Source: Escherichia phage F13. Taken from it: a stretch of 64,000 bases of DNA. The stretch is from the sequence record OP745617; one strand, written 5' to 3'. Every line of letters starts with the position of its first letter. Position 1 is the first letter of the stretch. This document shows, piece by piece, positions 1,540 through 18,054 of this stretch. The translations under genes were made by a program, and so were the position numbers. Under the pieces are notes generated by a model. That model was not told the DNA's origin and did not search any database. It worked only from the letters and a program-made list of their open reading frames with translations.

Positions 1540-1990
1540 ATACGCCTAAAATACGGTTAAAAATTAAGCGTATCATGGCTGCAGGCCGCGCCGTTCCTGG
1601 ATTCCTCTTTTCCAAATTGGTACACCCTTACGTCATGATACGTCATGGTTTTTTATCCGTATCAGTGTACAACCCTTGCCGCGCCTGGCTTGTACATTAA
1701 TCTTACGGATGATACGGATAAAACTGAGCATCGTTATATATAGAATTCGAAAAATTAATTAACTCCATTTTAAAAACATTTATATTAATTTTTTTCATAT
1801 CCTCATACTTATGTTAATTTATATATTTAACGTATCATCCGTAAGATATAAGTAAAAACAAAGACTTGCGGCAATACGGATGATACGTCATGATACGCTT
1901 CAACCAGCCAGCAGCGGCTAAGTCGTTGATTTGCATAACAAGCGGCAAAAGGGATGGATTTCTTTTATACGTATCAAACAGTACACCACG
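1540..1990. repeat. Composite element A: AT-rich core (about 1735-1830) flanked by inverted repeats aatcttacggatgatacgg (1699-1718) and ccgtatcatccgtaagat (1831-1847), plus extra GGATGATACG-type copies (1629-1665, 1873-1898)
   Basis: Read directly; homologous to element B at 18055-18345 (shared aatcttacggatgatacgga and tatata-gaattc-aaa-ttaatt core). Confidence 0.8.
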
Positions 1991-2062
1991 CACCACGGTC
2001 CGTTATCCATTCAGCAATATGATTTGTGTACGTTTATAGCCATAATGAACATCAATCTGCAC

Positions 2063-2091
2063 TTGAATATAATGTCCATCCATTGTATAAT
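2063..2091 (+). promoter_or_regulatory. sigma70-like promoter with extended -10 (TTGAAT-N17-TGTATAAT) upstream of the TerS-like gene
   Basis: Hexamers and spacing read from sequence; the transcribed leader would contain two AATTTGCACTATG motifs. Confidence 0.4.
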
Positions 2092-2111
2092 TCACACTAT
2101 TAATTTGCACT

Positions 2112-2600
2112 ATGGGATTTTGCACTATGAGTCAAGATTATGTAGCGATGCCTGAAGACTTTGAAGACCCGCGATTCGCAGAGCACAATCAGGCTTTATT
2201 CGATGAGTTCATTGACCTTGTTATTCAGGGTCATGACATGCGCGCAGCTTTTGCACTAGTATTTGGAATGGAAGTTGCAACGGATAACTACACTGGCCAG
2301 CGAATCCTTTGCACGCAACGCAATCCATACTACAAGATGCGCTTCAAAAAGCGTATGGAAGAGATGCCACTCAAGGATTTGTGGAGCGTAAAAGGTGCAA
2401 TTCACAATTTGGTTAAGCTTGTTCGTGATCCAGAAGTCGCGGCGTCAGCCAAGCTTAATGCTATTCGTGAACTGAATATCATCTACGGCATCACGATGAT
2501 TGATGAAAACGGCAATAGTAAAATGGGCCGTTCCATGGACGATTTCTACAAGGATTTTGGAGAGGCGGCCAAAGAAGGTGAGCAATTCTCCCGCCACTAG
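2112..2600 (+). CDS. terminase small subunit-like DNA-binding protein (possible start at 2127)
   Basis: About 160 aa; NQALFDEFIDLVIQGHDMRAAFALVFGM and C-terminal AKLNAIRELNIIYGI resemble TerS (Terminase_2-type) segments; recognised from memory only. Confidence 0.4.
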   Translation: MGFCTMSQDYVAMPEDFEDPRFAEHNQALFDEFIDLVIQGHDMRAAFALVFGMEVATDNYTGQRILCTQRNPYYKMRFKKRMEEMPLKDLWSVKGAIHNLVKLVRDPEVAASAKLNAIRELNIIYGITMIDENGNSKMGRSMDDFYKDFGEAAKEGEQFSRH

Positions 2601-2619
2601 CCAATTTGCACTATAAAAC

Positions 2620-2654
2620 GGCCCTAGAACACATTTTCTCCAATTCTAGGGCCA
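2620..2654. terminator. Hairpin between convergent genes: perfect 10-bp stem GGCCCTAGAA/TTCTAGGGCC, 15-nt loop
   Basis: Inverted repeat read from sequence; no strong T-run, so terminator function is inferred from position. Confidence 0.4.
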
Positions 2655-2714
2655 TCGGTAATACGACGGGGAAGGTTACAAACATAAACGCGTTAGAAAG
2701 TGTATTATTATAAG

Positions 2715-2978
2715 TCATCTTTTAGTCACCTTACGTAACAATTTACGACCTTCAACCGTCCAATCGAACGACTCCACCAGCAGATTCGCACTATAACCTA
2801 AGACGATGCGTCCCTTCTCGTTATCGACCCGCCAACAAGTCTCGAATAGCATTCGATTTGCACTATTAACTATTGCCGCAACTCGCGTAGGATAAGCGCA
2901 ATTTGAACTATGGTCGTAAAGGGATAAGGTGCGACCACTTCCGATGGACAACGTAGCGATGAGAATGAGCGTATTCAT
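2715..2978 (-). CDS. doubtful ORF (87 aa) overlapping three copies of the AATTTGCACTAT motif
   Basis: Has a possible GGTGG RBS, but the motif copies inside suggest the region may be regulatory rather than coding. Confidence 0.2.
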   Translation of the reverse strand: MNTLILIATLSIGSGRTLSLYDHSSNCAYPTRVAAIVNSANRMLFETCWRVDNEKGRIVLGYSANLLVESFDWTVEGRKLLRKVTKR

Positions 2979-3028
2979 AAGCCACCAATTTGCACTATGA
3001 AAAGCGACCCCGAAGGGCCGCCATTCGA

Positions 3029-3655
3029 TTAGATAATCTGGAAGGTATAGGATTTGTTGCCGAACTCAAAGTTCAAGCGCCCAGCTTCCTTAAGCTTCAT
3101 GCGGAAGCGAATGTGCTTGCTATCCGGCAAGCCCAGCACGGCGAACGCTACGCGGACCGATTTGAACTCGCCTACACCCTCGACCATAACGCCGTTACGG
3201 GTGAGACGCTTTTGCGCCACTTCCTTATTATCCCAACTTTTTGCAATACCTTCGCTATTCGAACGGCGATGGGAAGGAGTTCCATTTTGCACTACGCAAT
3301 TTGCACTATCGTTTAGACCGCTCTTAACGAAGGCTTCATACTCTTCGTCGGTCATCGCGTCGAGTTCTTCCTGGGTCGGCTCGGCCTTTTTAACGACCGC
3401 ACGCGCCTTATGCGTTTTTACATCGCTGGACACTTCCTCGCGCGACTTCGCTTCGGGGATGGGCGATTCGTTGGACGGCTCATCGAGCGCGTTTAAGGAC
3501 TCGATTAACGCGATTACGCGAGTCTCGGCGGTACGGCGGTCCGCAAATTTCTTAATCGGCTTCGAACCGGAATTTGCATTATAAAATGCAACGAGGTCGG
3601 CGGTCTTAGTTGCGATAACGTCGCCGCTAGTCGAGAAACGATTTAAGCTAACCAT
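3029..3655 (-). CDS. hypothetical protein (208 aa)
   Basis: AGGAG RBS upstream of ATG at 3655; contains two tandem motif copies on the opposite strand and the TTTGCATT-N4-AATGCAAA palindrome near its 5' end. Confidence 0.6.
   Translation of the reverse strand: MVSLNRFSTSGDVIATKTADLVAFYNANSGSKPIKKFADRRTAETRVIALIESLNALDEPSNESPIPEAKSREEVSSDVKTHKARAVVKKAEPTQEELDAMTDEEYEAFVKSGLNDSANCVVQNGTPSHRRSNSEGIAKSWDNKEVAQKRLTRNGVMVEGVGEFKSVRVAFAVLGLPDSKHIRFRMKLKEAGRLNFEFGNKSYTFQII
3573..3592. promoter_or_regulatory. Palindromic operator-like site TTTGCATT-ATAA-AATGCAAA
   Basis: Perfect 8-bp inverted arms with 4-bp spacer; a dyad version of the AATTTGCA motif. Confidence 0.35.
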
Positions 3656-3735
3656 AATGAACTCCTATTTGTTAGGGCGCTAGGCGCGAAAGAATTTTAT
3701 TAAAGCGCCGCGCACGACGCTCTAAAAATCCTCTC

Positions 3736-4020
3736 TTACGCTTCGACGAGGGAGAAGGTCTCAAATTCTTCTTCGCCCATAACGAGTAAGATGTTACCGA
3801 TTTCGACCGCTTCGAAGAAGTATCCGTTAACGTTTACTTCGAAGGCTTCGCGGTCCGATTCCGGTAACGCCGCGTAAAGTTTAAAAGCCTCGGCGACCGT
3901 TACCCCACCCGCCTCGATGGTCTGGTCTACGTTCGCGGCGTAGACTTCGGATAAAATTTGTTTTACGCCGTAGTTCTCGACGATAGCGTTACGGATGGAA
4001 GAAACGTTAAGAATAGCCAT
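3736..4020 (-). CDS. small early protein, paralog family member A (94 aa)
   Basis: AGGAG RBS; preceded on the minus strand by the conserved promoter/hairpin cassette; MAILNVSSIR…EVYAANVD…VNGYFFEAVEIG aligns with the 4958-5248 product. Confidence 0.6.
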   Translation of the reverse strand: MAILNVSSIRNAIVENYGVKQILSEVYAANVDQTIEAGGVTVAEAFKLYAALPESDREAFEVNVNGYFFEAVEIGNILLVMGEEEFETFSLVEA

Positions 4021-4088
4021 TTTAAACTCCTAGTTGGGAGAGGCGTTAACGACCTATTCGCTAACTCATCCCGTCCCGATATGAGTAC

Positions 4089-4116
4089 ATTATAATATAG
4101 TGTAGAAAAAAGTAAA
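4089..4116 (-). promoter_or_regulatory. sigma70-like promoter (TTTACT-N16-TATAAT) of the conserved early cassette, minus strand
   Basis: Reverse complement of 4021-4128 is nearly identical to the plus-strand cassettes at 4548-4655 and 4851-4957. Confidence 0.5.
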
Positions 4117-4160
4117 GCACTTTTTCGATAAAAATGCGATAAATTATTTTATCTTTTTTC

Positions 4161-4188
4161 TTTACTTCTTCGTACACTCGCGTATACT
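4161..4188 (+). promoter_or_regulatory. sigma70-like promoter (TTTACT-N16-TATACT), diverged copy of the early cassette, divergent to the minus promoter
   Basis: CTTTACTTCTTCGTACACT shared with the other cassettes; followed by a GGGC…GCCC hairpin and a GGGAG RBS. Confidence 0.45.
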
Positions 4189-4244
4189 TGTTTATATCGA
4201 GACGGGCGATGGCCCTTCCTTCTACTAGCATCGGGAGCTTTATT

Positions 4245-4547
4245 ATGACTACTTTAATCTCTTCCATCCTTACTTACGACGAAGACCGTTTAACCGTTCG
4301 CTCTCTTATCGCCGCCGTTAACGCCGAACTAGAATCTAGCGCCATTAAGGTCCGCGCGGTTGCCTTCGTCGGTCTTTCCTTCGACGATATCAAGTACGCC
4401 GAACGTAGCGCCATCCGCTTCGCGAAGACCGACGACGAAGCCGTTACCCTTATCGAGACGGTTACTCCGCGCGGCGAAACGTTAATTATCGTCGAGTATA
4501 TCGACGTAGAAGGCGATAAGGCTTATAAATATTTTATCGCAAAATAA
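4245..4547 (+). CDS. small early protein, paralog family member B (100 aa)
   Basis: ATG at 4245 with GGGAG RBS (the track's 4188 start is a TTG inside the -10 element); N-terminus MTTLISSI resembles the paralogs; 3' two-thirds lies in the tandem duplication. Confidence 0.6.
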   Translation: MTTLISSILTYDEDRLTVRSLIAAVNAELESSAIKVRAVAFVGLSFDDIKYAERSAIRFAKTDDEAVTLIETVTPRGETLIIVEYIDVEGDKAYKYFIAK

Positions 4548-4558
4548 CGAAAAAGTGC

Positions 4559-4587
4559 TTTACTTCTTAGTACACTAAGACTATAAT
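4559..4587 (+). promoter_or_regulatory. sigma70-like promoter TTTACT-N17-TATAAT (cassette copy 1)
   Basis: Near-consensus -10 and 17-bp spacer; followed by the 5' UTR hairpin at 4610-4630 and AGGAG at 4644-4648. Confidence 0.55.
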
Positions 4588-4609
4588 GTTTTATATCGAG
4601 AGGGGATGA

Positions 4610-4630
4610 GGTAGCGAATAGGTCGCTACC
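4610..4630 (+). ncRNA. Conserved 5' UTR stem-loop (GGTAGCGA-ATAGG-TCGCTACC)
   Basis: Perfect 8-bp stem; the minus-strand copy (GTTAGCGA/TCGTTAAC) keeps pairing through a compensatory U-A and a G-U wobble. Confidence 0.5.
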
Positions 4631-4655
4631 CTCCCGACTAACTAGGAGAATATTA

Positions 4656-4850
4656 CGCGCGGTTGCCTTCGTCGGTCTTTCCTTCGACGATATCAAGTAC
4701 GCCGAACGTAGCGCCATCCGCTTCGCGAAGACCGACGACGAAGCCGTTACCCTTATCGAGACGGTTACTCCGCGCGGCGAAACGTTAATTATCGTCGAGT
4801 ATATCGACGTAGAAGGCGATAAGGCTTATAAATATTTTATCGCAAAATAA
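4656..4850 (+). pseudogene. Duplicated 3' fragment of gene 4245-4547 lacking a start codon
   Basis: Second repeat unit encodes RAVAFVGLSF…KYFIAK in frame, but the position matching the ATG of gene 4958 reads ACG (4655-4657). Confidence 0.45.
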
Positions 4851-4861
4851 CGAAAAAGTGC

Positions 4862-4890
4862 TTTACTTCTTAGTACACTAAGACTATAAT
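4862..4890 (+). promoter_or_regulatory. sigma70-like promoter TTTACT-N17-TATAAT (cassette copy 2, drives gene 4958-5248)
   Basis: Identical to copy 1 (offset 303 bp); hairpin at 4913-4933, AGGAG at 4947-4951. Confidence 0.55.
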
Positions 4891-4957
4891 GTTTTATATC
4901 GAGAGGGGATGAGGTAGCGAATAGGTCGCTACCCTCCCGACTAACTAGGAGAATATT

Positions 4958-5248
4958 ATGATCACTTTATCCGCTATCCGTGCCGCTCGCGTCGAAACTT
5001 CCGAAAACTCTAACGTATTTGGCGAAACCTTAGAGAGCGTTTATCTCTCTAACGTTGACGCGATTATCGAGTCTATTTATGAGCCGATCAACTTCCTCGA
5101 CCTTTACAAGTATCGCGATGAGGACATCGTGTCCTACCGCGTAACGATTAACGGCTTCGTTTATACGATTACCGAAATCGGCGGCGAATATCTCGCTGTA
5201 CCGCAACTCGGCGGCGAAGTAACTTACTTTAAAATCGTAAGCCTTTAA
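4958..5248 (+). CDS. small early protein, paralog family member C (96 aa)
   Basis: ATG with AGGAG RBS; clear similarity to the 3736-4020 product (IR-A-VE, VY-NVD-IE, NG-xxE-EIG). Confidence 0.6.
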   Translation: MITLSAIRAARVETSENSNVFGETLESVYLSNVDAIIESIYEPINFLDLYKYRDEDIVSYRVTINGFVYTITEIGGEYLAVPQLGGEVTYFKIVSL

Positions 5249-5259
5249 GGAGAAGAAAA

Positions 5260-5469
5260 ATGATTAATATGAATAACTCTCTTAACGCGCGCGCCCATCG
5301 CACCGCCGTCATCGATATGTTCCGTGAGCTTAAGGACTTATGCGATAATATGAACGCGATGTTATCCATCGGCGGCTGGGGATACGAAGAAGAAGTTAAA
5401 TATGCGGTTATGCGTCGCCGTCGCGATAACGTCCTTGGGCAAATTAAACGCGCCGGATTATTCCTTTAA
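5260..5469 (+). CDS. hypothetical small protein (69 aa, basic)
   Basis: AAGGAG RBS 8 nt upstream of ATG; followed by an intrinsic terminator. Confidence 0.55.
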   Translation: MINMNNSLNARAHRTAVIDMFRELKDLCDNMNAMLSIGGWGYEEEVKYAVMRRRRDNVLGQIKRAGLFL

Positions 5470-5495
5470 TTATAATCAACCACCGTTACTAATAG

Positions 5496-5517
5496 GCCGC
5501 GCTTAGTCGCGGCTTTT
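5496..5517 (+). terminator. Rho-independent terminator (GCCGCG-cttagt-CGCGGC followed by TTTTCTT)
   Basis: GC stem plus T-run directly after stop of gene 5260-5469. Confidence 0.6.
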
Positions 5518-5638
5518 CTTCGTCCCTATCTCGGTGCGCTCCTACGCGAAAACTCCTTTATCCTTCCCTTCGTCGTCGCATAATCTTCGTCGATATGCGC
5601 CTTAGTTCGCATAACAGGTATTACGTTAAATGGAGAAC

Positions 5639-5715
5639 ATCGCGTAAGTCCTTGTTTTATATAGACACCTATATCGGACCGTTAGGGCGGGTCGCGTAAG
5701 TCGTTGTTTTATAAA
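5639..5715. repeat. Direct repeat pair (A/G)TCGCGTAAGTC(C/G)TTGTTTTATA (5639-5663 and 5691-5715)
   Basis: Two 25-nt near-identical copies 52 bp apart in a 700-bp ORF-free region. Confidence 0.6.
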
Positions 5716-5838
5716 GGCGCAAAACTTTCCCTTCGTTCCGAACTAAAACGAGGAATATGCCGACCCTTCGTCCGAAAATAGTACGCATGCGAAATTACAT
5801 GCATCTAGAATAATCCCCACAGATATTATCCTACACGC

Positions 5839-5903
5839 AATCATTCGCTTTCGAATCATTATGCTTCATATTATTATGCGTCGAATCATTCGCTTTCGAA
5901 TTG
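5839..5903. repeat. Direct repeat pair ATCATTCGCTTTCGAAT (5840-5856 and 5885-5901)
   Basis: Read directly; each unit contains a TTCGAA palindrome. Confidence 0.6.
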
Positions 5904-5991
5904 TAACGCTGGAAACTGTAACGGCGATTGATTATTGCGTTCGTGTGGTTTTTATGGCATGGGTCTTTTGGTGCGTTTTGCTACTTGATGG

Positions 5992-6103
5992 AATTTGCGG
6001 TACACTAATCAAAATACGACACATTTAGTCTACTAACTTTTCAAAGAAAAAGTCCTGGACAGTACCGTACTATTTTGTACCCACAGGAAATTTGCAGTAC
6101 ACT
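5992..6103 (+). repeat. Variant motif pair AATTTGC(G/A)GTACACT (5992-6006 and 6088-6103)
   Basis: Shares AATTTGC with the 2.1-3.6 kb motif family and GTACACT with the early promoter cassette. Confidence 0.5.
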
Positions 6104-6183
6104 CCTGCGCGCGGCAGGCAAAATAAAGGGCCGCACCAAGCGACCCACGATTCACGATTCACGGTTAAAGCAACATCCACCCA

Positions 6184-6564
6184 CTATTCACTCTTATGGG
6201 CATCACCAAATCCATCAGCAATCTGGCTGATCAACGACTCAATGGACACAGTTTTACCAATTGATCGAGCGGTTATGGCGAGCATATTATCAATCAAACC
6301 ATGATTGACACAATACTCTGGAGATTTAGAATCATCTTCAGAACAACCAAAAAGCTGGTCGCGCAGACTTTCAAGAGAACGCTCAATATTTTCCAACTTC
6401 TCTTCTAAATCGGATTGGCGACGTAAAACCCATGTTAAGTCTCGGTTGCCGACTTCCAACCCATCAGAATAGCAAGGTGGAGCGTCAATTTTGATGCTGG
6501 AACCAAAAGCAGTGCCGCTGCCTTTAGTATAAGTATGGCTCATAGAATCATTTTTATTTGACAT
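6184..6564 (-). CDS. hypothetical protein (126 aa from ATG 6564)
   Basis: Last gene of the minus-strand block; internal ATG with weak AAGG RBS chosen over the track start. Confidence 0.45.
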   Translation of the reverse strand: MSNKNDSMSHTYTKGSGTAFGSSIKIDAPPCYSDGLEVGNRDLTWVLRRQSDLEEKLENIERSLESLRDQLFGCSEDDSKSPEYCVNHGLIDNMLAITARSIGKTVSIESLISQIADGFGDAHKSE

Positions 6565-6661
6565 ATCATTACCTTTAATATTTGGGTGATTAACAATAAC
6601 TATAATAAAGCCGCATAGCGCGGCATTCAAATCGATTTATTAATTGTGACGATTGGATTCA

Positions 6662-6856
6662 TCAATCGATACCAACTGAGCCGATGTGCTGAAAGAACTC
6701 TGAATAAACTTCCTTCCAGTACTTACGCGCTGCTTTCTGGGCTTGTCCTTTGCGCTTGAAGCTTTTGCCTTGAAAGATGAAACGGTCGCTTGTCGCGCGA
6801 TACTCCACCACACCTTCCAGCCATTGTAAGAATGCTACTGATTCATTTTTATTCAT
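6662..6856 (-). CDS. hypothetical small basic protein (64 aa)
   Basis: GAGGT RBS 5 nt upstream of ATG. Confidence 0.5.
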   Translation of the reverse strand: MNKNESVAFLQWLEGVVEYRATSDRFIFQGKSFKRKGQAQKAARKYWKEVYSEFFQHIGSVGID

Positions 6857-7261: not shown

Positions 7262-7360
7262 TTATGCCGCAGCAGCGTGAATTATTGCGTAAACAATTCC
7301 TAACAGGGCGACAACGCAAACAGTGCCCCAAAATGCAAAGCGTCGTGCCTCTTTATCCAT
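7262..7360 (-). CDS. possible small membrane peptide (32 aa, MDKEARRFAFWGTVCVVALLGIVYAIIHAAAA)
   Basis: Single hydrophobic helix; GGTGG-like RBS; sits between two coupled genes. Confidence 0.25.
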   Translation of the reverse strand: MDKEARRFAFWGTVCVVALLGIVYAIIHAAAA

Positions 7361-7640
7361 TGTCCACCGCCCCAATATCCATGAAATTAAAAACCAATTT
7401 CGCCATTTCATCTTGTGAAATGACATTATAGTGCTTAGGCAAATCGCTTTCTGATAATACCTTCTGGGCTTCTTCTTTTGTCTCAAAGAGAGGGATGCAC
7501 CAGTTTACTGCTTCACCAGATTCATTACTGTCTACTTGCTTTAAAAAGACCAAGCGGTTATCTTCAGGATCAATGCCGCAGATGACGTATTTTGGCAATG
7601 CTTTTGCTTTTTGAGTCTTATCAATATCTTCAAATTTCAT
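7353..7640 (-). CDS. hypothetical protein (95 aa from ATG 7640)
   Basis: GAGGTG RBS upstream of ATG 7640. Confidence 0.5.
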   Translation of the reverse strand: MKFEDIDKTQKAKALPKYVICGIDPEDNRLVFLKQVDSNESGEAVNWCIPLFETKEEAQKVLSESDLPKHYNVISQDEMAKLVFNFMDIGAVDNG

Positions 7641-7721
7641 AATACACCTCACTTGTTAACGTATAATGAGTATAACTTAATAGCGCATAAAGTAAAGGCG
7701 CTTTTCAGCGCCTTGAGTGAA

Positions 7722-10031
7722 TTATTTTGCTGATTTCAGCGCGGCTATCTCTGCCTTGAGTTCACCTATCTGATCCATGAGTGCAAGAATAGCCTCGTGG
7801 TGCAATGCCGCTGCCACTCCGTAAGTGTCGACTGATTTGACATCCTTGACCACGGTCCCATCAGCCAGTTCCATATCACCTGAAACAGAAACGGCTTCTG
7901 GGAAATCAACCTCAACATCTTGAGCCACGAATCCAAAACCTACTTTCGCGCCGTCAGTTTTCAATCGCCATGACACGCCATTAATCCTTTTCATCTTGGT
8001 CAATGGGTCTTGAATCTTGACAATCTCATCCTTGATTCTGACGTCTGAAGAAGTACCCCAACCGCCAGCGCAAACAGCATTACCTGCTTGCAGGAATTGG
8101 AAATACTTGTTGGTGCCTACACCGCCAGCAGTAGTGGTCATTATGGTCACATCGCCATTACGCTCAGAATATACCCGACCATACGTTGCTGTGTTGGCAC
8201 TGTTCTTAAAATCGATGAACGATTGGTTGTTGGTGTTTCCAATGAACGTCGCTTGACCGCCGCGAGTTATCAACTGGCCTTTTGCATCAACGTTCCCAGA
8301 GCTGGTGATCAAGTTATTTGGCACAAGCAAGTTGCCGTTGTCGACAAAATCGAATGCCTGGCTGGCGGCAGTCGTCAAATTGGTAACGGTCAATCGCATG
8401 TAATAAGCGCCACCGATAACAGCGCGAATGCGCATGCGACCTTCAGCCTCAACAGCAGTCCCCACTCGATACTCCGACATGACGCTGCCGCCGTCAGCGG
8501 TCGTGCCTGGACCTGGCATTGCCGTATCGCCGTTTATAACAGACCATTGCGTATTCGCCGCTGTGAATCCACCGGATGCACGAATCACCCAAACGCCTGA
8601 AAAGTTGCGCGGCAATACTTCATCTGTTGCAAGGTTGTTACGACCGTAAGCTGGGCTTGAGTTAGAAGCTCTTAGCGCAACGCTTCCCAAAGAGTTCGCA
8701 CCAGAACTTAAAAGCGAAACACCTCTTACATATCGCGGAATGGTGAATCCTTCTCCATTGATGAATGCGCCGCCAGCACCTGCGACAACCGTTCCTGATG
8801 CTGGTTCACTTGCAGGGCCGGACCCGTGGAAGTTGATGTTGCCAGTGATGTTTGGCAGGAAGGATTCCATTATCATTCCGTCATTTGACGAGTTGCCGCC
8901 ATCGCCACGGGCAAAAAGTGCACGAACACTTCCTGTCTGAACGCCGTTACGGTCTGGAACACGGAATGTTGTTGTTCCGTTGCCTAAAGAATACTTTCCG
9001 CGCTTCAGCGGGTCAGCCAACCAATCTGCATCAGCAATAGGCGTAAGCATTTGCGCATAAGCCCAAAGCTCAGGCCAGTCTGCACGGTTAAGCAATTGTC
9101 CGTCGGCAACAACTTCATACGACTGAATATAGGCGCGACTGTCGCGCAGGTGAAAGTCACCAACGCCATAGTTCATTACGCCGTTCATGCTTGGGCCAAC
9201 GGTGCCAGTATTTACTAAGTTCTCAACCCAACGCTTCGTCGCGGCATCATAATCATTGACGGGGTCGCCAGCCAGTGGTGTTGAGCCTTGTGGACGAATA
9301 TTCAACCATGCTTGCGCATTGTCTGCTGATCCTGTGCCGCCCATGGAAGTTGGAACGATGCTCTGATCAGCAACAGGGCCAAATCCAAAGGCATCTTTCA
9401 TTCCCTGAATAGTCGTTTGACCTGTGCCGCCGTTTGCAATTGGAATTGTGCTTTGTGAACTATAAATTTGCGCCCAAGGCGACCATGAAGATGTTTCAGC
9501 ATTGTACCTTCTTTGGTACAAGTTATTTGAGTTGAATGTGGTGTATCTTTGAATGCAACTTTCCAAAGATATGGCAGTCTGCAGGACTTCCAATATCCCA
9601 GCTTCCAAGGCTACTGGATAGTTGAGGGATGTCTGCGCAGCAGCATTTGAATATTGGTAATATTGCCCAAACCAAGTTCCAGTCAAAGAGTTCAGATTTA
9701 TCCCCGACGGCAAAAGTCCAAAATTCCTGACAGTATTGGTCAAAGATGCGGCAGTTGTTCGAATGGAAAGCATGTCGCCTGCCGCCCATGCGCGCGCTGC
9801 AGTTCCTTCCTGTGCACGCTGCACAGTCAGGACGTTCCCAACCACGGCTGTTACAGTGATGATTTCAAATTGGAGGCCTGTTGCAGCGTCGACGATTGTC
9901 GCCACTACACGCTCGTTTGCACCCAAGGTCGGAAAGCCCGACCCTGAGCGGATTGTGATTGTGGTGTCTGAAGTCGTCGCTGGCTGAGCGAGCGCGACCT
10001 CAAAGTTGTTTTTGAATATTAGCCTTGGCAT
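7722..10031 (-). CDS. tail fibre/tail spike protein with C-terminal intramolecular chaperone (S74-type) domain
   Basis: 769 aa, Gly/Thr/Ser/Asn-rich; C-terminus has SDVRIKDEI…DGAKVGFGFVAQDVEVDFPEAV, typical of the auto-cleaving chaperone domain of phage fibres; GAGGA RBS. Confidence 0.7.
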   Translation of the reverse strand: MPRLIFKNNFEVALAQPATTSDTTITIRSGSGFPTLGANERVVATIVDAATGLQFEIITVTAVVGNVLTVQRAQEGTAARAWAAGDMLSIRTTAASLTNTVRNFGLLPSGINLNSLTGTWFGQYYQYSNAAAQTSLNYPVALEAGILEVLQTAISLESCIQRYTTFNSNNLYQRRYNAETSSWSPWAQIYSSQSTIPIANGGTGQTTIQGMKDAFGFGPVADQSIVPTSMGGTGSADNAQAWLNIRPQGSTPLAGDPVNDYDAATKRWVENLVNTGTVGPSMNGVMNYGVGDFHLRDSRAYIQSYEVVADGQLLNRADWPELWAYAQMLTPIADADWLADPLKRGKYSLGNGTTTFRVPDRNGVQTGSVRALFARGDGGNSSNDGMIMESFLPNITGNINFHGSGPASEPASGTVVAGAGGAFINGEGFTIPRYVRGVSLLSSGANSLGSVALRASNSSPAYGRNNLATDEVLPRNFSGVWVIRASGGFTAANTQWSVINGDTAMPGPGTTADGGSVMSEYRVGTAVEAEGRMRIRAVIGGAYYMRLTVTNLTTAASQAFDFVDNGNLLVPNNLITSSGNVDAKGQLITRGGQATFIGNTNNQSFIDFKNSANTATYGRVYSERNGDVTIMTTTAGGVGTNKYFQFLQAGNAVCAGGWGTSSDVRIKDEIVKIQDPLTKMKRINGVSWRLKTDGAKVGFGFVAQDVEVDFPEAVSVSGDMELADGTVVKDVKSVDTYGVAAALHHEAILALMDQIGELKAEIAALKSAK

Positions 10032-10069
10032 TTTACGGTCCTCGTTTTGTCGACAACCGTATTATAACC

Positions 10070-10411
10070 TTAATTTCTTTTGAGAGGAATATGACGGTGG
10101 CTGCCATTATTTGGTTTAATAATGAGCATAAAAACGATTAGAAAGATGATGGCTGATATACTTAATTCAATCAGCGCGGCTTGAGATATAGATTGATCTT
10201 CGTGATACTGCTTTTGCATTTCTGCTTTCTTCTGAGCGCAAACTTCAGGTGATATGTAATCGCCTTTTGAGTTGCCATAATAAATTTCGCCGTTTTCAGA
10301 AATCAGTCTGCCGCAAATATCCGTTTCAGCCTTTGCACTTGACATCATAATAACGGTGCCGATAATAGCGGCGATAGTCCAGATTAACAGTTGTGATAAA
10401 GTGTTGTTCAT
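10070..10411 (-). CDS. secreted/membrane-anchored protein (N-terminal signal peptide, C-terminal TM helix)
   Basis: ATG 10411 with AGAGG RBS; MNNTLSQLLIWTIAAIIGTVIMMSSAKA signal-like, C-terminal ALIELSISAIIFLIVFMLII helix. Confidence 0.5.
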   Translation of the reverse strand: MNNTLSQLLIWTIAAIIGTVIMMSSAKAETDICGRLISENGEIYYGNSKGDYISPEVCAQKKAEMQKQYHEDQSISQAALIELSISAIIFLIVFMLIIKPNNGSHRHIPLKRN

Positions 10412-10428
10412 GATAACCTCTTTAAATT

Positions 10429-10449
10429 CCCTTCCCATATCGGGAAGGG
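10429..10449 (-). other. GC-rich hairpin (CCCTTCCC-atatc-GGGAAGGG) in the 5' leader of gene 10070-10411
   Basis: Perfect 8-bp stem about 17 nt upstream of the start codon on the minus strand. Confidence 0.4.
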
Positions 10450-10607
10450 TGATAATTATTTTACGCGAAAGAATAGGCGCGTGCCACACAGCGAGTCCCA
10501 ACGGCCTTCACCATCCCATACCGACCCAACGCCAGCGGTGATGACACCAGCAGAATTGGCGGCATTGGCCCAGGCGAGTCGTTTCAGCTTCCAACTACAC
10601 CAACGAT

Positions 10608-10841
10608 TCACAGTTCATCTCCAGATTGCAGAACAAGTCCCGCATAGAGGATTGCCAAGGCCAAAGGTGCACCACCACCAGCCTCTCTATTCTCTTTGAT
10701 TTGAAGAGTATCCTTAAGGAATTGCAGCTGAACGTTGAATTCACTTTCAATTCCAAGCACTCTAGCCAATTCTTTTACAGAATCTGCATATGCCTTGTCT
10801 AGCACTTCTTTTGGTACTGTTAAGGTTAATTCATTTGCCAT
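10608..10841 (-). CDS. hypothetical protein (77 aa from ATG 10841)
   Basis: Start chosen at MANELTL…; part of the minus-strand operon. Confidence 0.45.
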   Translation of the reverse strand: MANELTLTVPKEVLDKAYADSVKELARVLGIESEFNVQLQFLKDTLQIKENREAGGGAPLALAILYAGLVLQSGDEL

Positions 10842-11052
10842 TTTCTTTCCACTCCACAAATGTGTTGCCGCTTGTTTCTCTGTTTAGCAGGTATCTGCCG
10901 CGCATCCCATGAAGGCTGAACTCAACCGTCGATGGATTAGATTTTGAAAGCCATATAGGCTGCCCGTCGAATGGACCGCCTACGCATGTATATTTCGCTT
11001 TTGGCTCACTCCTTTTGGGCCGTTTTGCCCGCTCTTTGATTGATAGTCTCAT
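10831..11052 (-). CDS. hypothetical protein (73 aa, basic N-terminus)
   Basis: AAGGTG RBS; overlaps neighbours by a few nt. Confidence 0.4.
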   Translation of the reverse strand: MRLSIKERAKRPKRSEPKAKYTCVGGPFDGQPIWLSKSNPSTVEFSLHGMRGRYLLNRETSGNTFVEWKENGK

Positions 11053-11267
11053 CAGTCTTCACCTTGAGATTCCAGACAAGTAAGGACAAGCCAAGTCATC
11101 GGAAGAATCAAAACCAGAGAAATGAGGGACCAGATAGACCAGCACAGGATGACAGACTTGAATGTGTGAACGTCGCCAAACGCAGCAGTAAAACAGAATC
11201 CCATTACAAATGCAATAGCGGTGGAATGGTTGTCTATGGCTTTGATGGCACGGTCGATGAGTTTCAT
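11052..11267 (-). CDS. small membrane protein (71 aa, two predicted TM helices)
   Basis: GGAGG RBS; hydrophobic segments AIAFVMGFCFTAAF and ILCWSIWSLISLVLILPMTWLVL; first gene of the minus operon. Confidence 0.45.
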   Translation of the reverse strand: MKLIDRAIKAIDNHSTAIAFVMGFCFTAAFGDVHTFKSVILCWSIWSLISLVLILPMTWLVLTCLESQGED

Positions 11268-11349
11268 ATTACCTCCGGTTTTGAGTTAATATGATTATAA
11301 CGCAGAGTCTCAGAAAGGCAAACTTTTTGTGAATTTTAATCAAAAAAAA

Positions 11350-11370
11350 TGGCCAGAAAAAAATCTGGCC
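11350..11370. other. Hairpin GGCCAGA-aaaaaaa-TCTGGCC in the divergent promoter region
   Basis: Perfect 7-bp stem with A-rich loop between the minus operon and terL. Confidence 0.35.
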
Positions 11371-11416
11371 GAAAGATCACCCTTTATCCACTACTAAGCT
11401 GGAATCATAATTTTAC

Positions 11417-11446
11417 TTGATATAGCTTGTACAAGCAAACTATAAT
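11417..11446 (+). promoter_or_regulatory. sigma70-like promoter TTGATA-N18-TATAAT immediately upstream of terL
   Basis: Hexamers read from sequence; the -10 abuts ATG 11447, so the real terL start may be the in-frame ATG at 11480. Confidence 0.4.
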
Positions 11447-12907
11447 ATGAATAAAATATTAACACATAATTGGAAATTCATGTACCAGTTGAATCCTGCT
11501 TTAAAAGAAGTCTGGAAGACAAAAGCGCGATACAAAGTAATATACGGCGGTCGTGCATCTTCCAAATCGCACGATGCCGCTGGTTTTGCTATTTATTTGG
11601 CGGCAAACTTCAAATTAAAATTCCTTTGCGTTCGACAATTCCAGAACAAAATTTCTGAATCTGTATATACTCTATTAAAAGACAAAATAGAGATTTCTGA
11701 TTTCAAAGATGAGTTCAATTTATTAAAGAACTCTATTGAACATAAAAGAACTAAATCTGAATTTCTATTTTACGGTATCGCACGTAACGTTGATGAAATT
11801 AAATCAACAGAAGGTGTTGACGTCCTTTGGCTGGAAGAAGCGCACGCGCTTACTGAAGAACAGTGGGACATTATTGAGCCGACAATCCGTAAAGAAGGGT
11901 CCGAAATATGGATCATCTTTAACCCCGATGAAGAGGCCGATTTTGTCTACCAAAACTTTGTTATGCGACCGCCGAAGAATGCCATTGTTAAAAAGATAAA
12001 CTGGCAAGACAATCCATTTTTGTCGCAAACGATGCTGGACGTTATTGCAGGCATGTACGAGCGCGACCCGAAAAAGGCAGAGCACGTTTATGGCGGCGTG
12101 CCGAAGACTGGCGGCGATAAATCTGTAATCAACCGCGCATTCGTTAAGGCCGCGCTTAATCTCCACAAACACCCTACGCTGGGATGGAGTTTGTCAGGGT
12201 CTAACCGTATAGGCTTTGACGTAGCGGACGATGGCGACGACCTTAACGCCACTGCATTCGTTACAGGAAACGTATTGCGCGGCATCAAGACATGGGAAGG
12301 TCTGGAAGATGAATTGTTAAAATCGGCAAGCGGAGTTTGGAAAGATGCGCTTACATTTGGCGCTTCTATAACTTATGACGCCATCGGTGTCGGCGCTTTT
12401 GCTGGTTCAAAATTTGATGAACTGAACGAGTATGCAATACATGAAAATCCATCATTTCCAAGAATCGAATTTAATGCGTTCAATGCGCAAGGGTCTGTTG
12501 ATGATCCTGATGACGTTTTTCTTGAATTACCACACGTTGAAATACTCAATAAAGACCATTTCGCAAACATAAAAGCGCAAAAGTGGACTGAAATTGCAGA
12601 GAGATTCAGAAAGACATACGAATATGCAACTGGGCAAGCCGTATATCCGACTGATGAGTTGATTTCAATCGACACCGATGGCATACCAGAACTTGGAATT
12701 CCAGCTTGGACTACTGAAGAGATTGAGACGTTTCTTTTTGAGATGTCAGCGCCGCGCAAAGATACGTCTGTTCTTGGCAAGTTCAAAGTTGAATCTAAAA
12801 AGGATATGGCAAAGCGTGGAGTCAAATCACCTAACAAAGCGGACGCGGCAATCATGGCATTAATGAAACCAATCGTTGCAGCATCCGGCTTCTTCTCTAA
12901 CCTTTAA
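11447..12907 (+). CDS. terL: terminase large subunit (alternative start 11480)
   Basis: Walker A YKVIYGGRASSKSH, Walker B-like VDVLWLEEAH, size 486 aa and position at the head of the morphogenesis module. Confidence 0.85.
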   Translation: MNKILTHNWKFMYQLNPALKEVWKTKARYKVIYGGRASSKSHDAAGFAIYLAANFKLKFLCVRQFQNKISESVYTLLKDKIEISDFKDEFNLLKNSIEHKRTKSEFLFYGIARNVDEIKSTEGVDVLWLEEAHALTEEQWDIIEPTIRKEGSEIWIIFNPDEEADFVYQNFVMRPPKNAIVKKINWQDNPFLSQTMLDVIAGMYERDPKKAEHVYGGVPKTGGDKSVINRAFVKAALNLHKHPTLGWSLSGSNRIGFDVADDGDDLNATAFVTGNVLRGIKTWEGLEDELLKSASGVWKDALTFGASITYDAIGVGAFAGSKFDELNEYAIHENPSFPRIEFNAFNAQGSVDDPDDVFLELPHVEILNKDHFANIKAQKWTEIAERFRKTYEYATGQAVYPTDELISIDTDGIPELGIPAWTTEEIETFLFEMSAPRKDTSVLGKFKVESKKDMAKRGVKSPNKADAAIMALMKPIVAASGFFSNL

Positions 12908-12910
12908 CAA

Positions 12911-13150
12911 TCAAAGCATTCCGTGCTGAAGGTCTAGTTTTCTTGCAGCAAATGACCTGGCACGGAATCGCTTACCCGCCCTTACTGCCTGCCGAATCTT
13001 CTTTTGCATACACTTACGGTCAAAATCGTTGCGGTCAACGGCTTCGAGTAAATCCCGACGCAAAGCACCTAGTGTCGCCTTTTCGGATAATTCTACGCCC
13101 AGCGCGGCTGCAACGTCTTTCAAAACATCGAGTTCGGTTAACGTTCTCAT
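12911..13150 (-). CDS. hypothetical protein (79 aa, basic C-terminus)
   Basis: Minus-strand ORF coupled (ATGA) to the 13147-13563 gene, wedged between terL and portal. Confidence 0.4.
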   Translation of the reverse strand: MRTLTELDVLKDVAAALGVELSEKATLGALRRDLLEAVDRNDFDRKCMQKKIRQAVRAGKRFRARSFAARKLDLQHGML

Positions 13151-13563
13151 TTGATAATCCCCTTGATGTCTGATTCTGCCATAAAGATTGGAGTGCCGCC
13201 GCCAGGAACAATCGAGCGCGTTACTTTGTCGAACATATCGTTTTCTTCAACTTGAATACGATAAAATTTATTCTTGGATGAAGATGGGCACAATTCCATA
13301 AATTTACCAATGCCGCGAACGCATTCATCTTCAAAGTATACTGTTTCACCTTGAATGGATTCGATGTTTTCAACCGGATACACCTTGCGACCTAAAAGCC
13401 ATTCATCCATGGTCGCCTGCAACACGCTTCTCGCATCCAAAATCCAAGGGTCAACTGTGGCACCTTCATATCGCGCAGCAGTGGCTTTTGCCAGCTCTTC
13501 ATATTCGCATACGTTTACTACTTCGCCTTGATGAAGGACGACAAATACAATTGTTGTGCTCAT
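13147..13563 (-). CDS. hypothetical protein (138 aa)
   Basis: AGGAG RBS upstream of ATG 13563; opposite strand to the flanking structural genes. Confidence 0.5.
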   Translation of the reverse strand: MSTTIVFVVLHQGEVVNVCEYEELAKATAARYEGATVDPWILDARSVLQATMDEWLLGRKVYPVENIESIQGETVYFEDECVRGIGKFMELCPSSSKNKFYRIQVEENDMFDKVTRSIVPGGGTPIFMAESDIKGIIK

Positions 13564-13658
13564 TTCAATCTCCTTTCGTTTGGTTAACTAAAATATAACT
13601 CAAAATGATACAAAAGCAAAATATTTTATGAACTATTTATGATTACTATACATATCAT

Positions 13659-13687
13659 TTGCTTACAAACACATGAATATTTATAAT
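13659..13687 (+). promoter_or_regulatory. sigma70-like promoter TTGCTT-N17-TATAAT upstream of the portal gene
   Basis: Hexamers and spacing read from sequence. Confidence 0.4.
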
Positions 13688-13725
13688 ATAGATTGATTCC
13701 CTTTCACTGTCAGGTGGCGTTAACA

Positions 13726-16101
13726 ATGAAAATTCTTGGCATAAAACTCTGGGAGAAGACGCGACCAGAAGCCGAACCAGCGGAGATGCCGCCAGGCGAC
13801 CCATTGGCACCGTTTGAACGCCTTGAAAGGCGCGGCAGCGGTCAACGCTGGGAAAAGACTGAAAGCAATCGACCGACCTTTAAAACGGTTGATGACTTCC
13901 CTTTATATGAGCCTGATATTAACGGGGACGGTGTTGCAATCATCAAAGGTCGCTCAGTAGATTCAGCAACCGTATCCAAAAAAGTTATGGATAATGCCTT
14001 AAAGAACATCAGTTCAGAAGGGCAGGTGAATCCATACACAGTGCCTATTCAGTTGCAAAACTGGTACTTATCGCAATCATTTATCGGATATCAAGCTTGC
14101 GCCATCATCGCGCAGCACTGGCTAGTGAACAAGGCTTGTTCCATGGTAGGCCGCGATGCGGTCCGTAAAGGCTGGGAAGTCAAATCCAGTTCTGAGTCGG
14201 AATTGTCAGTACAGGCCAGCGAACGCTTAAAGCAAATTGATAAAGAATTTAACATCAAAGAGCACTTAGTTGAAGCCGAACGATTCAAGAATATTTTTGG
14301 CATCCGCGTCATCATATTTGATGTGCGCAGTGATGACCCAGAATATTATAGCAAACCTTTTAACATCGATGGTGTGACAAAAGGGTCTTATAAGGGAATC
14401 ATTCAGGTTGACCCTTATTGGATGATGCCATTCTTGACGTCTGAAAACACTGCAGACCCTGCGTCACAGCATTTCTATGATCCAGAATACTGGGTGATCA
14501 GCGGACAGCGTTATCATCGCAGCCACCTAATCATCTTGCGCAACGATGAGCCAGCTGATATTCTCAAGCCGACTTATATCTACGGCGGCATTCCTCTGAC
14601 TCAGCAGATTTATGAACGTATCTATGCCGCTGAACGTACCGCTAACGAAGCGCCATTGCTGGCGATGTCTAAGCGTACAACCACGCTTCGGACCGACGTT
14701 GACAAGGCGATTGCCAATGAGCGGTCGTTTGCCGAACGTCTGATGATGTGGATTAAGTACCGCGACAACTATGCAGTCAAAGTGCTTGGTCAGAAAGAAG
14801 AGATGGACCAGTTCGACATCAACTTGTCAGACTTCGACAGCATCATCATGAACCAGTACCAGCTGGTGGCCGCAATCGCAAAAGTTCCGTCGACAAAACT
14901 GTTAGGGACGTCACCTAAAGGCTTTAACGCCACTGGTGAGTTCGAAATGGTCAGCTATCACGAAGAATTGGAGACTTGTCAACAGCACGATTTGACGAAG
15001 ATTCTTGACCGCCACTATAAAATCCTTTTGAAGTCTGAAGGCGTGGAAGTCGACGTTAAAGTGGCATGGGAGCCAGTTGGTTCACTTACTGCTACTCAGC
15101 TTGCAGAGATTAACGACAAACGAGCGAATACTGGCAAGACTCTCATTGATGCTGGCGTAATCTCCCCTGATGAAGAGCGCGACCGCATCAAGGACGACAA
15201 AAACAGCGGCTACAACCGTTTGCCGGAAGATGCAGCAGAAGAAACCCCAGGGATGTCTCCAGAGAATATGGCACTGCTTGGCAAGTCTGCTGGTGAAGTT
15301 CTGCAAGGCAAGGCCGATATTGAACAGGCCAAAGCTGATGTTGTCAAGATGGGCGGCCAGTTCTATAGCGAGACTGGTATTATGCCGGAAGGTGCCGCGC
15401 GTGGTGAGTTGGCGGAAAACCCTGACAGGGCACCAGTTGAGATTAACATGGATGATACCGATGACGAATCAAGCCATCACGTTGATGTCCTAACGCAACT
15501 GAAAGAAGGTCTGGAGGGTATTGCTGACTATTACCTTAAAGAAGGTCAGGACGTGGATTTTGACCCTCAAAAAGATGCAAGGTCGGTGCAACCGTCTACG
15601 CTTCCAAGCGTAAAAGGAAATGTCGTGAACTTGCGACACAATGTAGGGAAGATGGATGCTGCATCGCTGCCTAAGATGAAGTTGCACGGGATGATTCTTG
15701 GTATTGAGAATCCTCGCAACAGCATTCGCAGGGGTAACAGCCTTGATGGTGAATGGGCAGTTAAGATGCCGCACCATTACGGATTTATCAAAGGCACCAA
15801 GGGCGCTGATGGTGATGAAGTCGACTGCTTTGTTGGACCAAACATGAAGTCGCCTAAAGTATTCATCATTAACCAAAATGATAATTATTCTGGCGAATTT
15901 GATGAACACAAGTGTATGCTTGGATTTGATTCAGCAGAAGAAGCGAAAGAAGCTTATCAGGCGTCATTTGGTAACGGTTGGAACGGATTTGACTCAATCC
16001 ACGAATTGGATGTAAACTCATTCAAGGAGTGGTTGAAGGGTGATTGCTCTCAAGCATATGGAGCACTCAACAATCCTACTAATTCACCGAAGCAAGGTTG
16101 A
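13726..16101 (+). CDS. portal protein with C-terminal inorganic-pyrophosphatase-like domain
   Basis: Large ORF directly after terL (AGGTGG RBS, ATG 13726); C-terminal ~150 aa carry GIENP…HYGFIKGTKGADGDEVDCFVG…GFDSAEEAKEAYQASF, resembling family I PPase (IEIP…YGFIP…DGDPVDVLV…GWENAEAAKAEIVASF). The portal call is from position and size. Confidence 0.6.
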   Translation: MKILGIKLWEKTRPEAEPAEMPPGDPLAPFERLERRGSGQRWEKTESNRPTFKTVDDFPLYEPDINGDGVAIIKGRSVDSATVSKKVMDNALKNISSEGQVNPYTVPIQLQNWYLSQSFIGYQACAIIAQHWLVNKACSMVGRDAVRKGWEVKSSSESELSVQASERLKQIDKEFNIKEHLVEAERFKNIFGIRVIIFDVRSDDPEYYSKPFNIDGVTKGSYKGIIQVDPYWMMPFLTSENTADPASQHFYDPEYWVISGQRYHRSHLIILRNDEPADILKPTYIYGGIPLTQQIYERIYAAERTANEAPLLAMSKRTTTLRTDVDKAIANERSFAERLMMWIKYRDNYAVKVLGQKEEMDQFDINLSDFDSIIMNQYQLVAAIAKVPSTKLLGTSPKGFNATGEFEMVSYHEELETCQQHDLTKILDRHYKILLKSEGVEVDVKVAWEPVGSLTATQLAEINDKRANTGKTLIDAGVISPDEERDRIKDDKNSGYNRLPEDAAEETPGMSPENMALLGKSAGEVLQGKADIEQAKADVVKMGGQFYSETGIMPEGAARGELAENPDRAPVEINMDDTDDESSHHVDVLTQLKEGLEGIADYYLKEGQDVDFDPQKDARSVQPSTLPSVKGNVVNLRHNVGKMDAASLPKMKLHGMILGIENPRNSIRRGNSLDGEWAVKMPHHYGFIKGTKGADGDEVDCFVGPNMKSPKVFIINQNDNYSGEFDEHKCMLGFDSAEEAKEAYQASFGNGWNGFDSIHELDVNSFKEWLKGDCSQAYGALNNPTNSPKQG

Positions 16102-16102
16102 T

Positions 16103-16954: not shown

Positions 16955-16961
16955 GGTCATT

Positions 16962-17882: not shown

Positions 17883-17892
17883 AGAGGAAGTT

Positions 17893-18030: not shown

Positions 18031-18054
18031 ATTCATCGGCAAAGGATTGCCGCG

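Follow-up and report, generated by a model that had tools for sequence, protein, structure and literature searches.

A cassette that joins a predicted σ70 promoter to a hairpin in the leader of the predicted transcript, a Shine-Dalgarno sequence, and a start codon occurs in three copies, plus what appears to be a very recent duplicate, in a 64,000-nucleotide stretch of DNA from Escherichia phage F13 (sequence record OP745617), which we refer to as the window. We favor, with some reservation, the reading that these are portable modules for early expression, of the type described in T4-like phages as promoter-early stem-loop (PeSL) cassettes, and that the leader hairpin is maintained by selection. 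An initial reading of the sequence, made without database searches (the sequence-only reading), had proposed a σ70 promoter followed by a leader hairpin under structural selection, and comparisons with related phages support this proposal.

Three cassettes and a recent duplicate

Between positions 3000 and 7000, the window is 100% identical to Escherichia phage vB_EcoM_SP13 (OP352608.1; Wifcevirus, Lindbergviridae) and 91–96% identical to 27 further Wifcevirus records. Across about 52 kb, there are just one mismatch and two one-base gaps relative to OP352608.1. Relative to the SP13 genome, the window is circularly permuted and collapsed, so that it has one copy of the 3.9-kb direct terminal repeat (DTR): the right unique end comes first, then the single DTR copy, and then the left unique part. 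To compare cassettes, we used the window and 17 further Wifcevirus genomes (18 in all).

The composite motif consists of, in order, an A-tract, CTTTACTT, TACACT, TATAAT or TATACT, ATATCGrGAsGGG, a hairpin, a stop-rich spacer, AGGAG, and ATG. It is found at four places, all of them intergenic. The relevant features of the window are:

1767 to 5968, no strand: DTR, as matched to both ends of OP352608.1
4021 to 4130, minus strand: cassette P(-), predicted promoter for gene 3736–4020; A-tract 4120–4125, -35 TTTACT 4111–4116, TACACT, -10 TATAAT 4089–4094
4021 to 4130, minus strand, leader of P(-): ATATCGGGACGGG 4070–4082; hairpin 4036–4078, with inner stem 4058–4065/4045–4052 and loop AUAGG 4053–4057; AGGAG 4027–4031
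4150 to 4244, plus strand: cassette P(+)A, predicted promoter for gene 4245–4547; T-tract, -35 TTTACT 4161–4166, TACACT, -10 TATACT 4183–4188
4150 to 4244, plus strand, leader of P(+)A: TATATCGAGACGGG 4193–4206; hairpin GGGC 4204–4207 / GCCC 4212–4215; GGGAG 4233–4237
4548 to 4655, plus strand: cassette P(+)B, copy 1; -35 4559–4564, -10 4582–4587, hairpin 4602–4635 with inner stem 4610–4617/4623–4630, AGGAG 4644–4648
4851 to 4957, plus strand: cassette P(+)B, copy 2, identical to copy 1; -35 4862–4867, -10 4885–4890, hairpin 4905–4938, AGGAG 4947–4951
4353 to 4655 and 4656 to 4958, plus strand: exact 303-bp tandem duplication of the 3' two-thirds of gene 4245–4547 and the entire P(+)B cassette

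All of the cassettes lie inside the DTR, around its middle. In the record of phage Mansfield, the homologous 3673 bp are annotated as a DTR, as predicted by PhageTerm. P(-) and P(+)A are arranged back to back; 45 bp separate their -35 hexamers, and neither has an upstream gene. P(+)B is directly downstream of gene 4245–4547.

The spacing within the cassettes is nearly fixed. An A5–6 or T6 tract occupies the expected place of the proximal UP subsite, and CTTTACTT (-35 TTTACT) is followed by 5 nt, an invariant TACACT, 4–5 nt, TATAAT or TATACT, 5–6 nt, and ATATCGrGAsGGG. The spacer after the hairpin has TAA and TAG in two frames (ACUAACUAG), and AGGAG or GGGAG stands 6–8 nt ahead of the ATG in every copy. 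TTTACT-N16/17-TATAAT occurs three times in the 64 kb (versus 0.04 expected). As the sequence-only reading stated, the -35 and -10 are σ70-like. The spacer of 17 nt that it gave needs correction for the minus-strand copy, which has 16. AAAAAGTGCTTTACTT has three exact occurrences in the window, and TATATCGRGASGGG is present in all four copies. The copy upstream of gene 4245–4547 had been described as diverged, and it is: P(+)A has a T-tract, TTTACT-N16-TATACT, and a different, short hairpin (GGGC-GATG-GCCC). Neither pattern searches nor a covariance model of the inner hairpin found any further copies of the composite motif in the window. TACACT, 5 nt past the -35, is invariant not only in all Wifcevirus cassettes but also in Pantoea phage PA1 (2540–3050) and unrelated viral contigs. 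To our knowledge, it is not a known σ70 element.

The sequence-only reading had counted four copies in both orientations. All four are where it placed them, but only three are independent: the two copies of P(+)B are identical because both belong to the 303-bp duplication. The duplication starts within gene 4245–4547, and its last base is the A of the ATG that opens gene 4958–5248; there is no microhomology at its junction. No usable start codon is in frame with the duplicated gene fragment. The first P(+)B copy is followed by the duplication junction and no gene, and the second heads gene 4958–5248 and then 5260–5469, for which it is the predicted promoter. The duplication is not present in either DTR copy of OP352608.1 or in the 17 other Wifceviruses, and a 26-mer across the junction has no match in IMG/VR. 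The duplication, and hence the fourth cassette, is either a very recent variant or an assembly artefact.

The inner helix of the leader hairpin covaries

In the window cassettes, the hairpin begins 14–15 nt past the -10. As the σ70 polymerase starts transcription 5–9 nt after the -10, the hairpin should be within the transcript, beginning at about +6 to +10. 

All three cassettes are kept in 18 of 18 Wifcevirus genomes. For the inner 8-bp helix, these genomes provide eight distinct sequence variants. (The pair counts use a later alignment of the leaders, because the first one, made with MAFFT, put a gap of the 3' arm in the wrong place.) Among the eight variants, 95% of cells are paired, and three of the eight pairs have double changes. 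None of 500 shuffles reached the covariation score, and if the partner positions are slid, then pairing drops to 22–56%. Thus, the alignment and covariance analysis with homologous phages, which the sequence-only reading had proposed as a check, did find covariation of the helix.

The individual changes are as follows. Between the paralogous P(+)B and P(-) cassettes, there are compensatory changes from G-C to U-A and from G-C to A-U. EC150 has changed U-A to A-U and has also gained a one-base bulge. Wobble intermediates (G·U in P(-) of the window and U·G in Bas99) pair on the sense strand only. Two genomes have a mismatch in the inner helix (C·A in Bas98 and A·A in kaset). The arms that the sequence-only reading had quoted, GGTAGCGA/TCGCTACC versus GTTAGCGA/TCGTTAAC, are correct, and its statement that the two copies differ by compensatory change holds for one pair (G-C to U-A); the other change is from G-C to G·U. 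Its argument for a selected RNA structure is thus supported by the wider comparison, that is, by the double changes and the sense-only wobbles across the genus.

Conservation extends to other parts of the hairpin. Across the 18 genomes, the P(-) and P(+)B cassettes vary little or not at all in the AUGA internal loop and in the AUAGG loop. The P(+)A hairpin stays in the same place despite turnover of its sequence: it is GGGC/GCCC in the window, AGAGGC/GCCTCT in Mansfield, and GGGAG/CTCCC in ECO71P1. A covariance model of the inner helix matches P(-) at 4043–4067 (37.5 bits) and the P(+)B copies (43.7 bits), and within the window it matches these known copies only. No Rfam family covers the cassettes, even at E values of up to 10, so we ruled out a known RNA family.

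Could the palindrome act in DNA instead, either by serving a dimeric repressor as its operator at +10 to +45 or by forming a cruciform that directs recombination? The inner arms do form a perfect 8-5-8 inverted repeat, the chimeric cassette of kaset (described below) switches parents inside the loop, and the authors of the PeSL work speculated about a DNA-binding recombination factor (PMC2839356). But the G·U and U·G variants are A·C mismatches on the other strand and break the symmetry of the DNA. Also, the arms differ at two of eight positions between cassettes of one genome, P(+)A is unrelated in sequence, and a conserved bulge and an asymmetric internal loop would be odd for a palindrome that is bound by a protein. 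We consider a role in DNA to be highly improbable. The patterns of substitution all point to selection on the inner helix as a sense-strand RNA structure, rather than as a DNA palindrome, although the number of independent events is small.

Genes are exchanged at the boundaries of the cassettes

The three genes behind the cassettes are small ORFans, and their proteins have no match in Pfam or PHROG:

3736 to 4020, minus strand: cargo gene of 94 amino acids, ORFan, distant paralog of gene 4958–5248
4245 to 4547, plus strand: cargo gene of 100 amino acids, ORFan
4958 to 5248, plus strand: cargo gene of 96 amino acids, ORFan, paralog of gene 3736–4020

The proteins behind P(-) and P(+)B are 28% identical (E = 1e-5), while the P(-) and P(+)B cassettes (about 110 nt) are 77–88% identical as DNA. 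The homology reaches about 20 nt upstream of the promoter, into the end of gene 4245–4547. Since the homology extends beyond the promoter and the cargo genes are paralogs, the unit was copied in inverted orientation long ago. The much lower similarity of the cargo implies that the cassette has been under purifying selection or gene conversion.

These observations bear on a simpler explanation: that the hairpin has no function and that the copies are alike because genes were duplicated along with their promoters, with the stem as a passenger. The paralogy of the P(-) and P(+)B genes and the extent of the upstream homology are as expected from such events, and the fresh 303-bp duplication shows that they occur. 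However, a passenger should not stay at about 80% DNA identity while the coding sequence drifts to 28% protein identity, nor should the substitutions in its stem be paired. Furthermore, the same architecture, with an identical core of 25 nt, is present in unrelated jumbo phages (see below). Overall, we view a functionless hairpin as very unlikely.

Across the genus, the genes behind the cassettes have been deleted, replaced, or joined by others. In ECML-117, Ro157lw, and RCIP0319, the 94-amino-acid gene is deleted and P(-) is fused, via the Shine-Dalgarno region, to a gene for 208 amino acids. In WFC, WFH, Bas98, and Bas101, a divergent homolog of 105 amino acids substitutes for the 94-amino-acid gene from ATG to stop; the closest relative that we found for it is in Pantoea phage PA1. 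RCIP0363, AV128, and ECO71P1 have a 50-amino-acid gene inserted in the A-tract of P(+)B, between 15-bp direct repeats (AAAATAACGAAAAAG). In kaset, P(+)B is a chimera whose parents switch within the hairpin loop, and its -10 is that of P(+)A. The breakpoints of the deletion, the replacement, the insertion, the chimera, and the duplication are all at the A-tract, at the loop, or at the Shine-Dalgarno sequence or ATG.

A second gene in the P(+)B operon, at 5260–5469 on the plus strand, encodes 69 amino acids and matches phrog_10377 ("transcriptional regulator"). It is in this operon only in SP13, ECML-117, and Ro157lw, and most Wifceviruses lack 5239–5469.

Related cassettes in other phages

Pantoea phage PA1 (Kylevirus), which belongs to the same family, has three related cassettes that include TACACT. 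One of these has the hairpin CGG-AAUAGA-CCG, and one has no hairpin. More distant relatives were found by using the cassette as a blastn query: it matches Asteriusvirus and Alcyoneusvirus jumbo phages, in which 25 bases (TATAATGTTTTATATCGAGAGGGGA) are identical. In the Asteriusvirus vB_Ec-M-J, the 21.5-kb DTR holds about 36 small genes in an array, and most of them have their own σ70 promoter. At least 10 of these promoters are followed by an 8-bp GGGG...CCCC hairpin exactly 6 nt past the presumed +1, and then by ACUAA, a Shine-Dalgarno sequence, and ATG. The cassette has no match in 5,426 Escherichia coli genomes, even at E = 1, and a host origin was therefore rejected.

The DTR cassettes of PBECO4, vB_Ec-M-J, and K64-1 have the same order of elements as those of the window: promoter, GTTTTAyATCrAG, GGGG...CCCC hairpin, ACUAA, Shine-Dalgarno sequence, and ATG. 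They also share the location in a terminal repeat, the small ORFan cargo, and TATAATGTTTTATATCGAGAGGGGA. Unlike the Wifceviruses, the jumbo phages have dozens of cassettes, in tandem on a single strand and with simple 8-bp stems. The Wifcevirus hairpin resembles the jumbo-phage hairpin with an extra 8-bp helix inserted beneath the same AAUAG loop. For jumbo phage CBB, "RpoD-like promoters with UP-like element" were reported, with no mention of the hairpin (PMC5259590). More broadly, the cassettes are not described in the Wifcevirus literature that we found or in one paper on CBB, which is a Rak2-like jumbo phage.

The cassettes are a variant of the PeSL kind

PeSL cassettes are known from the T4-like phages RB49/phi1, T4/PST, and KVP40/nt-1 (PMC2839356, Arbiol et al. 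2010; PMC4122927, Comeau et al. 2014). Those of RB49/phi1 are repeated intergenic composites, in which an AT-rich tract is combined with a σ70 promoter, a GC-rich stem-loop, and the Shine-Dalgarno sequence and ATG (PMC2839356). PeSLs border ORFans in hyperplastic regions, and genes are deleted, inserted, and circularised when PeSLs recombine with one another (PMC2839356). The Wifcevirus cassettes share this architecture: they are intergenic repeated composites of an AT-rich tract, a predicted σ70-type promoter, and a Shine-Dalgarno sequence and ATG at the 3' end. They share the evolutionary behavior as well, as they lie in a variable region of small ORFans and the breakpoints of indels and replacements fall at the cassettes. 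Their promoter, TTTACT-N16/17-TATAAT or TATACT, matches the consensus of the T4/PST PeSLs, which is TTTACW-N17-TAYWAT (PMC4122927). When we read the RB49 sequences, we found that the PeSLs have several motifs in common with the Wifcevirus cassette: AAAAAGT, ATCGA(A/G)ACG past the -10, and CTAACTAGGAGAAT ahead of the ATG. By its architecture and its evolution, then, the cassette is a variant of the known PeSL kind, and no new system. Neither this kinship nor the connection with the shuffling of genes had been noted in the sequence-only reading.

There are differences, mostly in the stem-loop. PeSL stem-loops are often polyG/polyC and fall into five classes by position, ranging from sites upstream of the -35 to sites immediately ahead of the transcription start (PMC2839356). 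In the Wifceviruses, the stem-loop, which is based on GGGG...CCC, is downstream of the predicted start site and so outside of the five described positions. In RB49, most of the stem-loops are in the spacer separating the -35 from the -10 or over one of the boxes, and at the furthest "just before" the start site, whereas the Wifcevirus one sits within the leader, with a fixed spacing to the -10. The Wifcevirus stem is longer, is bulged, and has RNA-type covariation. Also, the PeSL phages are T4-like (Straboviridae), while the host phage here is a myovirus of the Lindbergviridae with just three cassettes, all of them in the DTR.

One RB49 PeSL stem-loop acted as a terminator in a reporter assay (PMC2839356), and such a role has been proposed for these stem-loops. 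If the hairpins of the window were terminators or attenuators that stop transcription from upstream, then each small gene would be expressed from its own promoter only. The location of P(+)B, directly downstream of gene 4245–4547, would suit this role. But the hairpins are followed by GACUAACUAGGAG, AACUAGGAG, and UUCCUUCUAC, with no U-tract after any of them, and a terminator scan called none of them; the operon does have a real terminator after it, at 5494–5515. Neither of the back-to-back cassettes P(-) and P(+)A has an upstream gene, so their hairpins can act on their own transcripts only, and for these two of the three copies a terminator is implausible. And at a fixed distance past its own promoter, the hairpin would also stop its own transcript. 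We therefore think that termination is quite unlikely as the role of these hairpins.

A layout closer to some PeSLs is found elsewhere in the window. At 7669–7714 on the minus strand, a terminator hairpin, AAGGCGCTGAAAAGCGCCTT, overlaps a promoter with a CTTTACTT -35 and a TATACT -10, upstream of gene 7353–7652. This corresponds to the PeSL class that has the stem-loop over the -35. Similar layouts (GGGCCTCCGGGCCCTTTACTT...TACACT...TGTATAAT) occur in three unrelated IMG/VR contigs (L007, L010, and L017).

How the cassette may work

We call the cassettes "early" because of the σ70 consensus, the location in the terminal repeat, and the small ORFan cargo. T4 early promoters are of a strong type, described as "UP/-35/-10 plus extra consensus". 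With its UP-like A/T tract and T4-early-like promoter, the cassette would be read by unmodified host RNA polymerase once the DTR enters the cell. Each mRNA would open with an initial transcribed sequence that is conserved and rich in purines (AUAUCGAGA). About 6–10 nt into the mRNA, a stable hairpin would begin, and after it would come a short unstructured spacer, with stops in two frames, and a consensus Shine-Dalgarno sequence immediately ahead of the start codon of the small ORFan. Our preferred guess is that the hairpin gives each early mRNA one uniform structured 5' end and so slows decay that depends on the 5' end; expression would then be independent of the cargo gene. At the level of DNA, the cassettes are long, differ little from one another, and stop precisely at the start codon, so they could serve as homology for recombination, by which the small genes behind them would be deleted, swapped, inserted, or duplicated.

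Some highly expressed bacterial and phage mRNAs, such as those of ompA and of T7 gene 10, have leaders with stabilising stem-loops at the 5' terminus, which start within 0–4 nt of the 5' end. The predicted Wifcevirus leader is similar in that a stable hairpin near the 5' end is followed by an unstructured ribosome-binding region, but it differs in having 4–8 single-stranded nt at the 5' end.

Several results weigh against our preferred interpretation. First, we found no Wifcevirus transcript data in the literature, so promoter use, timing, and the start site are predictions, and we also infer the biochemical role of the hairpin from sequence comparisons. Second, at the likeliest start site, there are 4–8 unpaired nt at the 5' end, which is at or past the limit for ompA-type protection. 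Third, the folding energies alone are unremarkable: -21.3 kcal/mol for the P(+)B leader (z = -2.1), -17.1 for P(-) (z = -1.4), and -10.6 for P(+)A (z = +0.5). Fourth, in our models the hairpin does not make the Shine-Dalgarno sequence more accessible (0.52 with the hairpin and 0.55 without). Fifth, if 35 nt of coding sequence are added (4897–4993, or 3985–4081 on the minus strand), then the minimum-energy fold is a different, long-range one, in which the 5' arm of the hairpin pairs with codons 2–9 and CUCC pairs with the GGAG of the Shine-Dalgarno sequence; this fold is lost when the cargo changes. Sixth, the covariation reflects few independent events (about three compensatory changes and two wobbles, versus the two disrupting variants in Bas98 and kaset). 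Finally, with only three cassettes per genome, the "family" within this phage is small.

Some other roles were considered and rejected. The idea that the hairpin keeps the Shine-Dalgarno sequence open was rejected because, in thermodynamic modelling, that sequence was as likely to be unpaired when the 5' arm was shuffled or replaced with poly-A as when the arm was intact. Conserved pairing between the 5' arm and the start of the coding sequence was rejected because, across genomes, the same cassette precedes three unrelated coding starts. The resemblance of ACACTATA to a promoter for a T7-like single-subunit polymerase was dropped as an idea without a test, and the window was not searched for such a polymerase.

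Alternatively, the hairpin might be a specific RNA operator, with a phage or host protein or an RNase that recognises the loop or the bulge and switches off or privileges the early mRNAs, timed to the course of infection. The near-invariance of the AUGA and AUAGG loops in P(-) and P(+)B would fit such recognition, as would the fixed position of the helix relative to the 5' end and the recurrence of the AAUAG loop on unrelated stems in Wifcevirus, in Kylevirus PA1, and in some Asteriusvirus cassettes. On the other hand, the hairpin and loop of P(+)A are quite different (GAUG, or GCGUU in ECO71P1), and many of the jumbo-phage cassettes have other loops or lack the hairpin. Furthermore, no candidate for the binding protein was identified; the only annotated regulator nearby, at 5260–5469, is missing from most members of the genus. 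We regard an RNA operator as unlikely.

A broader version of recognition would span phage families. The leader module (the initial transcribed sequence plus a hairpin whose position is fixed at +6 to +10 and whose loop is often AAUAG) could be a horizontally exchanged RNA element that is recognised by a factor and acts as an "early mRNA tag". Unrelated coliphage families would share it (the Lindbergviridae and the jumbo Asteriusvirus phages, with sequence ties to the RB49 PeSLs). If this speculative and, in our view, doubtful proposal were true, then a host or phage factor would specifically single out the early mRNAs, either to give them privileged stability or translation or to shut them off at a set time, and the hairpin would not be a generic stabiliser.

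On our preferred reading, that of a PeSL-type early-expression cassette, the most direct consequences are for the biology of the Wifceviruses. These phages are reported to replicate unusually fast (BASEL collection paper), and the cassettes are obvious candidates for their first transcripts. Promoter-plus-stem-loop cassettes would also extend beyond T4-like phages, with a stem-loop that is predicted to lie in the mRNA and that seems to be under selection at the RNA level. The 25-nt identity links the Wifcevirus cassettes to the gene arrays in the terminal repeats of jumbo phages. The cassette thereby ties together the Lindbergviridae, the jumbo-phage DTR arrays, and the T4-like PeSLs, and its leader RNA is an element that lends itself to clean tests. 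Taken together, these points favor the view that phages have in such cassettes a general and exchangeable means to express and shuffle ORFans for host takeover. In practical terms, the cassette is a compact, self-contained expression module that is predicted to be strong.

Annotation and neighboring repeats

The cassette also flags ORFs that are probably mis-annotated in several GenBank records. SP13_006 (4061–4177 of the window, minus strand) and similar ORFs in Bas98–101 and kaset are annotated across the divergent promoter region, and the annotated start of SP13_007 is upstream, within the leader (4209–4244, plus strand). The SP13_006 call and the upstream start of SP13_007 are probably spurious and lie over regulatory DNA.

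The gene array in the terminal repeat of vB_Ec-M-J, noted at 7623–19647, is accompanied by larger repeated intergenic blocks (for example, 2729–2942, 6378–6704, and 9653–9879) that share a second conserved element, GGGATTGACTCCGGTCAG...GCTATTATAT. In the window, the DTR has at its right boundary a long stretch of non-coding DNA (5470–6130), with direct repeats at 5640–5716 (two of 25 nt) and at 5823–5910 (two of 43 nt). This stretch may be linked to repeat-boundary or packaging signals.

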